DNA of 61,910 bases, filler included, from 5 parts of 5 records of this genome joined end to end with filler, not necessarily neighbours in it; one strand, 5' to 3'; shown: positions 15,436 to 19,756, counted from the first letter of the whole stretch. A program made the numbers and translations. Notes: generated by a model not told the origin, from the sequence alone.

Positions 15436-16935
15436 TTAAAACTTGAACGTGAACCCGCTGTAAACCCCCAACGAATAGGGGTTAAAATTGCCCGATGTAT
15501 TCGAAAAGGTGTTCAGTTGATATTTAAAAACCGGCTCAACATTAAATTTAAGCTTAGGCGTAAACTTGTAATCCAGTCCAAGACCAAGGTTGGTGCTAAA
15601 ATTAACGGTATTGATATTATTTGCTTCCCCAAACTCTGTAGTCTGTCCGCTGGATTCCAACACCACGGAATTATCCGTAAGAAATAGGGAACTTACCCCA
15701 CCTATAATGTTGACGCCAAATTTACGGTTCAAGAGCGCATAGTTTAGTTCAAGAGGTACCTCCAAATACCCCATTTGTTGCCCCATTGTTCCTAAGCGGG
15801 TAGGGTTTTTGCCAGTTACATCCATAGCGAATACAGATCCGGGTTTGGGAATTACATTTTCGCTATTGGGATTATTCAAAATGATGGATTGGGAGTCATT
15901 GGAATAATCAATATTGCTTATTTGGTTACCCGTAGAAGCGTTAAAGGAGGATGTAAAGGAGACGTCGTTGGTATCATAACCATAATCTACCTTATGGATA
16001 CCGGAGCGCAGGCTTAGTTTTTTGGAAATTTCGTAAGCTACCGTAATACCGTAACTCATGGTTACACTTCCTGTTTTGCTATTGGAGGCTAGAATGGAAT
16101 TGATTGGGGATCCTTCACCCATACCGTTAAAGTAAACTGGAGCAATACTGGGACCTGCAGACCACTTTCCATTGTGGGTTTGCTTAACTTCAACGACCTC
16201 ATTTTCTTCAATGGCCTCTAAAATGGATTTTTTATTTGATGGAAGGTCCTCAGAGGTGACTTCAGGAGTTTTTTCAATGGGCTTGTTTGCGTTATTGTTT
16301 TCTTGATGTACAATGGCTTCCTCAGCAGGAATAGGCAACTCCTTAGAGGGTAATGTGTCCTCTTTTGGTTTTGGATATACGGAATTGGCCGGGTCTTGGC
16401 CTGCATTATTATCAATACTCTTAGTGCCCGATGCATTTGTTACCAATTCCTTGGTTGCTGTATGGGTTGGAATAGCGTTCTTTTGTCCTTTTCCTGAGTT
16501 ATCTTGTTTTGGGTTTCCTTCTGCAGCTATGCTTCCATTGTTGGGCAGGGGATCTGTAATTTTGTCCCTAGCCGTTTGGTCTGAGGCTTCAATTTTATTT
16601 TCCTCTAGTGTTTTCCCTTCATTACCGGTTATGCTGGTGGCTTCAATGGAAGATTCCTGTAAAATATTATCGTCCTTGGTACTTGGGGTATTATTTTCTA
16701 CATCTGTAATAACCGGTGTTGCCGATTCGGAAGTGGAAAAAGGATCGATCGCAAAGAATAGGATGGCAAGTATTGCTGCCGCTCCTCCTACTTTCCACCA
16801 AAGGGGAATAAGCTTGCGGGATCGTTTCTTATTATCCAAGGAAGTGGCTATGGAATTCCATACTTTTTCGTCTGGAATTTCTTGGAAGTTGGCCAACTTC
16901 TCTTGAAATAATTTGTCTAAATTATTTTCACTCAT
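15436..16935 (-). CDS. Putative dual-membrane-spanning anti-sigma factor (cytoplasmic N-terminus, TM helix, disordered linker, C-terminal OMP beta-barrel)
   Basis: DKLFQEKL…KVWNSI N-terminal helix; TM LWWKVGGAAAILAILFFAI; low-complexity S/T/E/N/P/K linker; beta-strand C-terminus YLEVPLEL…GVYSGFTFKF; directly downstream of the ECF sigma gene. Confidence 0.78.
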   Translation of the reverse strand: MSENNLDKLFQEKLANFQEIPDEKVWNSIATSLDNKKRSRKLIPLWWKVGGAAAILAILFFAIDPFSTSESATPVITDVENNTPSTKDDNILQESSIEATSITGNEGKTLEENKIEASDQTARDKITDPLPNNGSIAAEGNPKQDNSGKGQKNAIPTHTATKELVTNASGTKSIDNNAGQDPANSVYPKPKEDTLPSKELPIPAEEAIVHQENNNANKPIEKTPEVTSEDLPSNKKSILEAIEENEVVEVKQTHNGKWSAGPSIAPVYFNGMGEGSPINSILASNSKTGSVTMSYGITVAYEISKKLSLRSGIHKVDYGYDTNDVSFTSSFNASTGNQISNIDYSNDSQSIILNNPNSENVIPKPGSVFAMDVTGKNPTRLGTMGQQMGYLEVPLELNYALLNRKFGVNIIGGVSSLFLTDNSVVLESSGQTTEFGEANNINTVNFSTNLGLGLDYKFTPKLKFNVEPVFKYQLNTFSNTSGNFNPYSLGVYSGFTFKF

Positions 16936-16973: not shown

Positions 16974-17516
16974 TTACCCTTCCATTATAATTCCAGCTTT
17001 ATTTGCCTCAATTTTTTCTTTTAATATCATTCTTGCCCTGGCAAGATTGGATTTGGAAGTCCCTAGGGACGTTCCCAGCATTTCACTGATCTCTTTGTGG
17101 CTATAGCCATCCAACACATAAAGGTTGAAGGTTAAGCGGTATTTATTGGGAAGCTCTTGCACATAACTAAGCAAGGTGGCCAGATCCAGGTTTAAATAGC
17201 CCGAATCTTCTGGCATTTCATCCTCTATATTATCTGTGACCAGTGTTAAGGTCTCCTCTTTCCTATATTTTTGAAGTACTGTATTTACAGTAATTCGCTT
17301 TATCCAGCCTTCAAAAGAACCTTGGTGTTTAAACTGCTCAATTTTGCTGTAGATGGTCATAAAACTATCATGCAGATTGTCTTCGGCCTCCGTTTTATTG
17401 CGCGAGTATTTGAGACAAATACCGAACAGTATCCGGGAATAATCCCGGTATAGCTGTTCTTGTGCTTGTCTGTTCCCCTTTTTGCAATTATTTATGAGCT
17501 CTACCAGATTACTCAA
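16974..17516 (-). CDS. ECF RNA polymerase sigma factor (ECF21-like)
   Basis: AQEQLY, AEDNLHDSF, SFEGWIKRITVN (region 2); YVLDGYSHKEISEMLGTSLGTSKSNLARAR (region 4). Confidence 0.95.
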   Translation of the reverse strand: MSNLVELINNCKKGNRQAQEQLYRDYSRILFGICLKYSRNKTEAEDNLHDSFMTIYSKIEQFKHQGSFEGWIKRITVNTVLQKYRKEETLTLVTDNIEDEMPEDSGYLNLDLATLLSYVQELPNKYRLTFNLYVLDGYSHKEISEMLGTSLGTSKSNLARARMILKEKIEANKAGIIMEG

Positions 17517-17536: not shown

Positions 17537-18013
17537 CTAATTCTTTAAATTGGTCGTGCCCATATCACTTACGGGTGCTAATATGGCCGAACTATCTTCG
17601 TTGACAGGCACAGTAATTTCCAAATATGTTGGCTCACCACTGGCGTCCTCACCTGTCCAATATCTAAATAAATACGGCTCATCATATAGGACCTCAAAGT
17701 TAAATGTTGCCACTAAGTCCTCACCGCTACCGGTACATTCTTCCTCGTCATCTTCAATAACAGTACCAATAGTAACTACCTTTCTAGTAGTTAAATCTTC
17801 TTTCACTACATCAAAACCTTCGAAAAAGGTACAATTATTCGGCCTAAAGTAAGTAACTTTTATTTTATAGATTTCACCGTAATCAAATGACTCCGGCATT
17901 TCTACAGATTTTACCTGTAAAGCTTCAAAATGATAGTTAACATCGTCATCTATGTCACAAGATGTTAAAATGGTAAAAGAGGCAACAAGCAGCAAAAAGA
18001 ATACTCGTTTCAT
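17537..18013 (-). CDS. Hypothetical acidic lipoprotein, first gene of the ECF operon
   Basis: Lipobox ILTS-C followed by acidic DIDDD; two further Cys residues. Confidence 0.8.
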   Translation of the reverse strand: MKRVFFLLLVASFTILTSCDIDDDVNYHFEALQVKSVEMPESFDYGEIYKIKVTYFRPNNCTFFEGFDVVKEDLTTRKVVTIGTVIEDDEEECTGSGEDLVATFNFEVLYDEPYLFRYWTGEDASGEPTYLEITVPVNEDSSAILAPVSDMGTTNLKN

Positions 18014-18134
18014 GTTCTTAATATTTAAGTTGTTTTATTATGGTTTTGGAAACCTTTTTTCCCTAAGAAATATGATTGGACATATTTTAATTTTTAGGGG
18101 CAAGTCGGTTTCATAACAATTGCTTTTGTTATTA

Positions 18135-18160
18135 AGATGTAAACGGGAAATAAAGGTTGC
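18135..18160 (-). promoter_or_regulatory. Putative autoregulatory ECF promoter GCAACC-N15-CATCT
   Basis: Minus strand reads ccacGCAACCtttatttcccgtttaCATCT and points at the lipoprotein-sigma-anti-sigma operon; the same motif and spacing recur at 19435-19460. Confidence 0.7.
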
Positions 18161-18170
18161 GTGGAGAAAT

Positions 18171-18197
18171 AAAAAATCCCGATTTAATCGGGATTTT
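18171..18197 (-). terminator. Intrinsic terminator after recA
   Basis: AAAATCCCGAT-tta-ATCGGGATTTT inverted repeat immediately past the recA stop. Confidence 0.8.
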
Positions 18198-18202
18198 AAG
18201 GT

Positions 18203-19210
18203 TTATGACTTTACTGTTTTGATGGCTTCCTTAATTTTGCCTTCCAGTTCTTCGAGTAGTTCCGGATTGTCCAGTAGTAAACTTTTAACAGCATCCCTAC
18301 CTTGGCCCAGCTTGGTATCGCCGTAACTAAACCAGGATCCACTTTTTTTAATAATTTCAAATTCAACACCCAGGTCGATTATCTCCCCTACTTTGGAAAT
18401 ACCTTCCCCGTACATAATATCGAATTCGGCGGTCCTGAATGGAGGGGCAACCTTGTTCTTCACCACTTTTACACGTGTCTTGTTTCCTTGTACGTCACCG
18501 TCGGTATCCTTAATTTGGGTAGATCTTCTTATATCCAAACGTACGGAAGCATAAAATTTAAGGGCGTTACCTCCAGTGGTTGTTTCCGGATTTCCGAACA
18601 TTACCCCAATTTTTTCACGCAATTGGTTAATGAAGATTACGGTACAATTTGTTTTGCTGATAGAACCGGTAAGTTTTCGTAATGCTTGTGACATTAATCG
18701 GGCATGAAGCCCCATTTTTGAATCGCCCATTTCACCTTCAATTTCACTTTTTGGGGTCAGTGCGGCAACAGAGTCGATAACTACGATATCGATGGCACCG
18801 GAGCGTATTAGATTATCGGCAATTTCTAAAGCCTGTTCCCCGTGATCGGGCTGGGAAATGATAAGGTTATCAATATCCACCCCTAGTTTTTGGGCATAAA
18901 AACGGTCGAAGGCATGTTCCGCATCAATAAAAGCTGCGATACCTCCATTTTTTTGAGCTTCAGCCATGGCGTGGAGCGTAAGAGTGGTTTTACCGGAAGA
19001 TTCAGGTCCGTAAATTTCAATTACCCGTCCTCGTGGATAACCTCCAACACCTAGTGCTACATCCAATCCCAAAGAACCCGAAGATATCACTTCTACGTCC
19101 TGTACTACACTATCTCCCATTTTCATTACGGCACCCTTGCCGTAAGTTTTATCCAATTTATCCAGGGTTAGTTTAAGTGCTTTTAATTTTGCGTCTTTTT
19201 CGGAACTCAT
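18203..19210 (-). CDS. recA: Recombinase RecA (start probably MSSEK at 19210; an alternative ATG lies at 19216)
   Basis: [49 protein letters not shown]. Confidence 0.99.
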
Positions 19211-19434
19211 TTTCATATCTTATTAGGGAGGCTAAAATACCAATTCTTTTTGCATAAAACCACCTATGGCAAGGATTTTATATGAAGAAATTAGTACATT
19301 ATTTTATTATAATTAAAATTTTTTCTTGGCCCCACTTCTTTTGAAATGCCCTAATTTACAAGGGTTAATGGGCTGAGCCGCTACAAATTATGTAGTGCAC
19401 CTATAAATTCTATCAATTATTTTTGACTTTGCAC

Positions 19435-19460
19435 GCAACCTTTTTGCGTTTGTATCATCT
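19435..19460 (+). promoter_or_regulatory. Second copy of the ECF promoter motif GCAACC-N15-CATCT
   Basis: gcacGCAACCtttttgcgtttgtatCATCT; shares CACGCAACCTTT and the 15-nt spacer with the copy at 18135-18160. Confidence 0.65.
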
Positions 19461-19466
19461 AAAAAA

Positions 19467-19604
19467 TAACTAACTCAAATTAGGTTGCTTATTGTTCTGG
19501 TAAAACAATAAGGGTTGTGGGTCAATATTTTATTTTAATTCTATGAAAAAGAAAAAATGATATTGACCTTAAAAAGGGTCTTGATATTTTCAAGATCCTT
19601 TTTT
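19467..19604 (+). ncRNA. Candidate ECF-dependent small RNA (about 140 nt, three hairpins)
   Basis: Follows the ECF motif; hairpins CTTATTGTT/AACAATAAG (19488-19512) and GGTCAATAT/ATATTGACC (19520-19568), then a terminator at 19571-19604; no meaningful ORF. Inference only. Confidence 0.45.
19571..19604. terminator. Intrinsic, probably bidirectional, terminator
   Basis: AAAAAGGGTCTTGA-tattt-TCAAGATCCTTTTTT (one G-U pair). Confidence 0.75.
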
Positions 19605-19656
19605 GCTTTATAGACTAACTCCTATTAATGGATCAAGAACAATTGTTGTGTTTATG

Positions 19657-19756
19657 NNNNNNNNNNNNNNNNNNNNNNNNNNNNNNNNNNNNNNNNNNNN
19701 TTAATTAATTAANNNNNNNNNNNNNNNNNNNNNNNNNNNNNNNNNNNNNNNNNNNN
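19657..19756. other. Artificial contig-joining spacer
   Basis: 44 N + TTAATTAATTAA (stops in all six frames) + 44 N; base composition jumps across it. Confidence 0.97.

Follow-up and report, generated by a model that had tools for sequence, protein, structure and literature searches.

Here we describe a predicted small RNA gene that lies next to recA, close to an operon for an extracytoplasmic function (ECF) sigma factor, in a 61,910-base DNA window. The window consists of five contigs joined by N spacers, and our analysis was confined to contig 1 (1 to 19656), which ends at 19656 and is followed by an N spacer. The G+C contents of the five contigs are 0.40 (contig 1), 0.62, 0.54, 0.41 and 0.55, and the window assembly may combine more than one organism. 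The nearest genome, G001 (5.6 Mb), is 100% identical to the window over 19150 to 19629 and served as the reference for genome-wide motif counts. Contig 1 carries a three-gene minus-strand operon encoding a lipoprotein, the ECF sigma factor and a 499-residue protein, followed by recA (18203 to 19216, minus strand; Pfam RecA, 3.1e-142) and, divergent from recA, the RNA gene on the plus strand. In this arrangement recA is a syntenic anchor, outside the system proper. All positions in a preliminary description of this DNA, covering two motif copies, three hairpins with a T-tailed terminator, a five-codon open reading frame (ORF) and the contig end, proved correct.

The promoter-like motif GCAACC-N15-CATCT occurs twice on the contig with equal spacing. 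The copy that belongs to the RNA gene (19432 to 19460, plus strand) is an exact motif match facing away from recA, and comprises CAC-GCAACC (−35-like box at 19435 to 19440), a T-rich tract, a variable spacer and CATCT (−10-like box at 19456 to 19460). The other copy (18135 to 18160, minus strand) lies past the recA terminator and ahead of the ECF operon, whose promoter it forms (18135 to 18163). Each copy can be extended to CACGCAACCTTT, and the window holds no further match, even with one mismatch. In G001, the 12-base form CGCAACC-N15-CATCT has only four exact matches, which are located before the ECF operon, the RNA, a 28-codon hydrophobic ORF and a gene for a 154-residue lipoprotein, in each case directly upstream and in the correct orientation; when up to one mismatch was permitted, the G001 count was at control level (16 versus 13). 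An autoregulated ECF operon whose motif recurs at a handful of other sites is the usual mark of an ECF regulon. The neighboring ECF sigma factor would be the one that reads this motif. The genes at the remaining two exact sites, L095 (G001:C3:1133986) and L096 (G001:C3:1703215), are likely further regulon members. One of these two sites has the 28-codon ORF, which is very hydrophobic and is followed by its own terminator, and the other has the 154-residue lipoprotein gene. A comparable 28-codon hydrophobic ORF was seen behind the motif in another genus (L046).

The RNA is predicted to span about 138 nucleotides (nt), from 19467 to 19604 on the plus strand, with a start placed 6 to 8 nt past the −10 box and an end in the T-run of the terminator; a covariance model matched 19461 to 19604 with 155.6 bits. 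The 138-nt sequence folds at −39 kcal/mol, compared to −20.8 ± 3.7 kcal/mol for shuffled sequences (z = −4.9), and none of 200 shuffles folded as well. Its 5′ single-stranded region contains a CUAACUC box (19470 to 19476) and is followed by three plus-strand hairpins. Hairpin 1 (19488 to 19512) pairs CUUAUUGUU with AACAAUAAG, hairpin 2 (19520 to 19568) consists of a long stem with a large apical region, and hairpin 3 (19571 to 19604) is an intrinsic terminator with a T-run, for which a terminator scan returned 14 pairs and a loop of 5. The loop of hairpin 2 carries the motif CUAUGAAAAAGAAAA (19541 to 19555, plus strand). It also contains the sole ORF inside the RNA, the five-codon MKKKK with its stop (19543 to 19560, plus strand; ATG at 19543, stop at 19558 to 19560). 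No known Rfam family matched the RNA: in a cmscan search of 17900 to 19657 with 4227 models (E ≤ 10), the only overlap with 19461 to 19604 was a chance microRNA match with an E value of 9.9. In the same region, the recA terminator (18173 to 18197, minus strand, 11 pairs), which stands immediately ahead of the operon promoter, resembles the Rfam models rimP and sroD on both strands, but these matches are weak, well under the gathering scores, and are ascribed to chance.

The gene is conserved throughout the genus. A BLAST match was present in all 25 genus genomes and was substantial in 24, the exception being a 77%-complete assembly with a weak 47-nt match. In 24 of the 25 genomes, the identity begins at the −35 box or at most about 20 nt upstream of it and ends at the T-run or at most about 12 nt past it; in the five most divergent full-length matches, it begins at the −35 box itself. 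The genus alignment varies freely ahead of the −35 box, within the spacer and over the 5 to 7 bases past CATCT (19461 to 19467), and hardly at all in the ACGCAACC-T-tract, in CATCT and between 19468 and hairpin 2. In this alignment, the hairpin 2 loop is variable, and the terminator shows compensatory changes. This pattern reads as the footprint of a promoter and of a discrete transcript that would start near 19467. Two genus genomes, L028 and L029, have an additional small hairpin inserted into the hairpin 2 loop; the two insertions differ by compensatory changes, and both loops lack the AUG motif and the mini-ORF. These natural loop variants are potentially useful for probing the role of the loop motif.

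The preliminary description had proposed a largely unpaired 5′ seed of about 20 nt. Within the genus, 19468 to 19487 is invariant. Elsewhere, only the CUAACUC box recurs, in what appears from the alignment to be roughly half of the other genera, and the best-conserved element of the RNA is the loop of hairpin 2. Specifically, a regular expression for CUAUGAAAAAGAAAA matched 37 of 41 sequences from 23 genera, and the corresponding alignment columns are near-invariant.

To examine the fold across relatives, two alignments were analyzed. The first contained 32 sequences. Besides the window, it drew on nine loci from other genera and on the genus loci, of which 22 out of 24 were used after removal of the G001 copy, which is identical, and of a locus cut by a contig end. 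RNAalifold, run on an independent MAFFT alignment of these sequences, recovered three helices with compensatory changes in 15 of 24 pairs. The second contained the 41 sequences mentioned above, that is, the window, 17 genus loci and 23 loci of 22 other genera, after near-identical and truncated genus loci had been dropped. In this set, 20 of the 24 modeled pairs had changed on both sides and 96.4% of cells were standard pairs; this alignment was fitted to the model structure and is hence biased toward it, but the MAFFT alignment gave the same helices. By hairpin, compensatory changes affected 6 of 6 modeled pairs in hairpin 1 (92.8% of cells paired), 5 of 6 modeled basal pairs in hairpin 2 (97.2%) and 9 of 12 modeled pairs in hairpin 3 (97.8%). 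None of 500 shuffles reached any of five measures, and slid partners paired in only 33 to 57% of cells. G·U cells outnumbered A·C cells by 71 to 9, indicating that the plus strand is the strand that folds. In sum, the RNA opens with a short unpaired 5′ stretch, continues through hairpin 1 and then presents CUAUGAAAAAGAAAA at the tip of the long hairpin 2, ahead of the terminator. The promoter is retained along with the fold: GCA[A/T]CC-N15-[C/T]ATC is found upstream of the RNA in all 41 aligned homologs, with invariant or near-invariant boxes and a variable spacer.

Outside the genus, BLAST returned only fragments and a covariance model was needed. The motif followed by a recognizably similar RNA was found at nine loci among 27 scanned in other genera. 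When the model (R1) was run against 151 family genomes, it gave 22 strong matches (53 to 156 bits) in 21 of 150 genera, and many matches below 44 bits. All 22 strong matches adjoin recA and are divergent from it, and in 17 of these loci the operon lipoprotein gene was found beyond recA. The motif also precedes the lipoprotein/sigma operon in every other genus inspected. Of the weaker model matches (below about 46 bits), the three examined were all terminators away from recA. A second model, built from the 41 sequences, returned the same 22 genomes and two marginal matches (G102 and G146). In a sample of the order, the second model found only G001, with no match in 136 genomes of 17 other families or in 14 other genomes of the family, a result that describes the genomes searched rather than absence. 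We conclude that the RNA constitutes a new family, present in a subset of Flavobacteriaceae.

The same locus takes other forms in sister genera. In an even sample of 31 family genomes, 29 of which had a recognizable recA, the 700 nt that follow recA contain the motif on the recA strand in 23 of the 29. Upstream of recA and facing away from it, the motif is present in 18 of the 29, after two regular-expression matches inside trhO, the gene that often follows, were dropped. Behind the motif, five of these 18 loci carry the RNA family, eight a 28- to 30-codon ORF and four a short transcript without an ORF, and one is ambiguous. The four ORF-less transcripts are predicted to end in a terminator, ahead of which stands a CUAACUC-like box. 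A GCUAU(G)AAA element lies about 25 nt past the −10 box in 10 of the 13 loci outside the RNA family and often opens an ORF of 2 to 9 codons. In the eight loci with the longer ORF (L118 to L121, L128, L129, L133 and L115), the encoded protein has a basic N terminus and a hydrophobic stretch and mostly ends in Cys-Lys/Arg-x-Asp-Gly-Gly-stop; L115 lacks the Cys before Asp-Gly-Gly. One possibility is that this 28- to 30-residue product is a signal peptide whose mature part is very short and perhaps lipidated. The sister ORF has its stop codon within a TAACTC/TAGCTC box that pairs with a downstream CGAGTTAG box. A search of five RNA-positive genomes did not find the 30-codon ORF elsewhere (E ≥ 0.44), although a search with so short a protein has little power. 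From this survey it follows that the three-hairpin RNA is younger than the promoter, the box and the terminator that precedes trhO, and that the locus has taken both coding and noncoding forms.

These sister loci bear directly on whether the RNA functions through translation. The window RNA could be a mini-ORF RNA, or a remnant or dual-function small-protein messenger RNA, in which CUAUG-AAA is a ribosome start site; it would then either work through translation of the tiny ORF or be a decayed descendant of the 28- to 30-codon gene. The existence of the longer ORF, ending in Asp-Gly-Gly, in 8 of the 13 sister loci with the same promoter and place speaks for such an origin, as does the GCUAU(G)AAA element in 10 of the 13, which in one locus is the start of the 30-codon ORF itself. 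The loop AUG is, moreover, kept in most sequences of the RNA family, as the match rate of the loop motif illustrates. However, the ORFs that begin at the loop AUG range from 5 to 45 codons across the 41 sequences, share only MK(K/R), vary in their frame with respect to the hairpins and, in several genera, continue past the terminator. The AUG itself is a GUG in one sequence, is removed by a one-base insertion in another and lacks its U in a third; two further sequences are without the motif, and AUC or AUA replaces AUG in two sister loci. Selection is visible on base pairs and not on codons. Decay from the longer ORF also fits poorly with the placement of the two conserved boxes, which in the sister transcripts stand in the opposite order to that in the window's family. 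Because the loop ORFs vary so widely in length, share so little sequence and often pass the terminator, a conserved peptide is unlikely. An ORF conserved in length and sequence is found in 8 of the 13 sister loci, outside the RNA family, and not within it. With a loop ORF conserved in neither length nor sequence, the RNA family is best read as noncoding, and we consider an explanation through the mini-ORF unlikely.

Downstream of the RNA, the flank is 100% identical up to 19629 to one G001 locus, which then continues differently. The last part of the contig (19626 to 19656) is the start of a short multicopy interspersed repeat, outside the RNA, whose final 27 to 31 nt match 11 other places in G001. 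The repeat (L002 to L005) is inserted 22 nt past the RNA terminator in the window strain and is not inserted there in G001; a copy is tandem in L003, and no transposase adjoins the copy in L002. The repeat probably caused the contig break. The preliminary description had cautioned that the contig ends shortly after the terminator and that an ATG at 19628 runs off its edge. The contig indeed stops at 19656, but this ATG is part of the multicopy repeat and no gene start. In G001, trhO (an NCBIfam equivalog) begins about 190 nt past the RNA terminator on the same strand and has a TAnnTTTG box some 45 nt ahead of its ATG; TAnnTTTG is the sigma-A −7 consensus as quoted in the consulted part of PMC7366714.

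The position of trhO, which comes next on the RNA strand both in G001 and in numerous other genera, raises the question of whether the RNA is the 5′ leader or attenuator of a downstream gene; alternatively, it might be the 3′ end of a neighboring transcript, given that an A-run and a T-run flank the terminator, which is therefore possibly bidirectional. Against a leader, the RNA ends in a strong terminator that is conserved by covariation, trhO is preceded, past the terminator, by a TAnnTTTG box in the loci read, and in the window strain the repeat separates the RNA from trhO. Against a 3′ end, there is no convergent gene, and the G·U pairs favor the plus strand. Since the ATG at 19628 is no gene start and trhO has its own TAnnTTTG box, the RNA is not evidently a leader, and both versions of this explanation are very unlikely.

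The operon on the other side of recA offers a candidate regulator. Its first gene (17537 to 18013, minus strand) encodes a predicted lipoprotein of 158 residues that has no Pfam or NCBIfam match and whose signal peptide with Cys was read from the sequence. The second gene (16974 to 17516, minus strand) encodes the ECF sigma factor, a protein of 180 residues with matches to Pfam Sigma70_r2 (1.3e-12), Sigma70_r4_2 (1.6e-14) and Sigma70_ECF (1.4e-08); among NCBIfam models, only the general sigma70-ECF superfamily exceeded its cutoff. The third gene (15436 to 16935, minus strand) encodes a 499-residue Dma/Reo-like anti-sigma factor with a short N-terminal part, a hydrophobic span at about residues 42 to 63, a long low-complexity linker and a C-terminal β-barrel (Pfam OMP_b-brl_2 at residues 290 to 467) that ends in Phe; the span, the linker and the Phe were read from the translation. 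According to the parts consulted of three reports (PMC13088901, PMC10927553 and PMC13114119), the Dma/Reo partners of ECF21 sigma factors respond to outer-membrane stress. An ECF21-type assignment of the sigma factor would be compatible with its neighbor, because the architecture of the anti-sigma factor matches the Dma/Reo description in the corresponding passages of PMC13088901 and PMC10927553.

Taken together, the promoter motif, fold, strand and distribution mark 19432 to 19604 as a conserved, independent gene for a structured noncoding RNA of about 138 nt, which is probably the RNA arm of the adjacent ECF outer-membrane stress system. In this model, the ECF sigma factor (16974 to 17516, 2 kb away) would be held by the dual-membrane-spanning Dma/Reo-like anti-sigma factor and, once released, would recognize GCAACC-N15-CATCT both ahead of its own operon and ahead of the RNA gene. 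Transcription would start at about 19467 and stop at the terminator (19571 to 19604), and the level of the RNA would rise with the outer-membrane stress response. The RNA might then act posttranscriptionally as the RNA arm of a small regulon, which is the least certain step. Such action would proceed via the two conserved single-stranded elements, either by RNA pairing or by occupying a factor that recognizes A-rich start-codon regions. The sigma-driven small RNA of about 140 nt put forward in the preliminary description is thus supported computationally by the conserved promoter, the covarying hairpins and the terminator, all of which are kept in relatives.

Several observations weigh against this interpretation. 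At the level of the window, the motif count is within chance: with at most one mismatch, shuffled sequences averaged 1.2 matches, and two or more turned up in 31 of 100 shuffles. The same statistic would be expected if the motif merely happened to stand beside an orphan terminator with no gene present, and the weak model matches elsewhere that were examined, three of three, were indeed mere terminators. Yet the motif is present in 41 of 41 homologs, three helices show covariation and the synteny is maintained across 23 genera, so that a chance arrangement is extremely improbable. Despite the window statistic, the locus reflects more than chance because of the contexts of the exact sites in G001, the fold energy and the comparative evidence. 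The assignment of the motif to the sigma factor, in turn, draws on the motif copy ahead of that factor's own operon and is to that extent provisional. The RNA as modeled is present in only 22 of 151 family genomes, and the 28- to 30-codon ORF found behind the same promoter at the same place in sister genera means that the locus is not universally noncoding.

The expression evidence is also mixed. Evidence from sequencing runs was limited to assembled contigs, in which uncovered stretches are uninformative. Runs X7 and X8 contained pieces of recA only, and X1, which is probably DNA, covered the locus in full. A further adverse point comes from metatranscriptome X9, in which an identical contig of 159 nt at depth 3 covers 19354 to 19512 and crosses the predicted start. 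This contig does not support a clean 5′ end; it may represent carried-over DNA or read-through.

The target searches add to these reservations. In RNAduplex calculations, pairing of the RNA with the operon and recA leaders was within the range of shuffles (22% and 18% as good, respectively). Complements of the 5′ box in G001 were near control, with 12 sites besides the RNA's own gene (two mismatches) versus 7; one of them is 5 kb away, but on the noncoding strand of a gene. Both target tests were crude. Finally, the loop motif reads like the opening codons of exported proteins. The loop is therefore sense, not antisense, of a typical start-codon region, a poor fit with classic start-site occlusion, and this leaves room for a decoy or a mini-ORF mechanism. 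Among the traits of the RNA, this conserved loop resembling a start codon is the most unusual.

As a decoy or sponge, the apical loop would mimic the A-rich start of messenger RNAs for exported proteins (AUG AAA AAG ...) and titrate 30S/S1, an RNA-binding protein or a small RNA. The loop does read, in the sense direction, like the opening codons of many lipoprotein genes at these loci (ATGAAAAAG, ATGAAGAAG and ATGAAACG starts), it sits on a long covarying stem as the most conserved element of the family, and neither the leader-duplex nor the 5′-box search found a complementary target. However, the decoy is without a partner candidate, and the resemblance is to a very common A-rich sequence, so that we give this explanation little credence.

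A broader reading that we hold only tentatively combines several of these observations. Here, the functional core would be the start-codon-like A-rich element (CUAUG-AAA-AAG...) on its long stem and not an antisense seed, and it would act as a translation-initiation mimic or a mini-ORF device, with a small-protein gene and a small RNA interchanging under one sigma-dependent promoter. The element might then be common to all versions of the locus in Flavobacteriaceae, that is, the three-hairpin RNA, the leader mini-ORF before a 30-codon and possibly lipidated microprotein, and the short ORF-less transcript.

Returning to the interpretation of the gene as the noncoding RNA arm of the stress system, the RNA gene and its clear motif give marine Flavobacteriaceae a testable reporter, a candidate posttranscriptional arm and a regulon-predicting motif for hundreds of genomes. 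The covariance model could, in addition, become a deposited new RNA family.

ECF21/Dma systems control vesicle formation and gut fitness in Bacteroidales, and their regulons are partly known. The window system resembles the Bacteroidales ECF21 systems Das1-Dma1, Das2-Dma2 and EcfO-Reo, as described in the consulted portions of PMC13088901 and PMC10927553, in having an operon of a small uncharacterized protein, an ECF sigma factor and a tethered β-barrel anti-sigma factor. Its predicted regulon is small and lipoprotein-rich, which recalls the NigD lipoproteins of Bacteroidales; the lipoprotein in the window has no NigD or other Pfam match. Word searches of the main texts of the Dma/Das and EcfO/Reo papers, with the supplements outside their scope, returned no small RNA and no promoter motif. 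In the ECF21 passages of the ECF reclassification paper, matches fell only within longer group names (ECF210 to ECF219), and those passages held no motif.

Among Bacteroidota, the RNA is similar to GibS of Bacteroides thetaiotaomicron and to the Rfp RNAs of Flavobacterium psychrophilum, which are likewise intergenic small RNAs with terminator hairpins. It differs from them in its proposed ECF dependence, as the consulted sections of those mapping studies include no ECF-dependent small RNA. The recA gene of F. psychrophilum is flanked by other genes and has a sigma-A start site, and the supplement passages on recA show no equivalent segment; the main text of the F. psychrophilum transcriptome study does not mention recA. 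Within the literature sections consulted, we encountered neither an ECF-dependent small RNA of Bacteroidota nor any RNA from this locus, although the Bacteroides supplements might list noncoding transcripts.

In Proteobacteria, and lately also in Fusobacterium, alternative-sigma small RNAs constitute the fast, repressing half of envelope-stress responses. Members of the phylum Bacteroidota are generally not known to have Hfq. The sigma-E-dependent small RNAs have been termed the "noncoding arm" of envelope stress in the consulted parts of PMC1804206, PMC4102768 and PMC11005410. As far as those accounts describe them, MicA, RybB and MicL of Proteobacteria and FoxI and FoxJ of Fusobacterium share with the window RNA the layout of a short, terminator-ended RNA gene with a promoter of the stress-sigma type, beside an autoregulated sigma operon. 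The window RNA differs from them in belonging to another phylum, in having no sequence or Rfam relation to them, and in its association with a sigma factor of another ECF group and a dual-membrane anti-sigma factor. The best-conserved element of the window RNA is an apical loop in the sense of a start-codon region and not a 5′ antisense seed.

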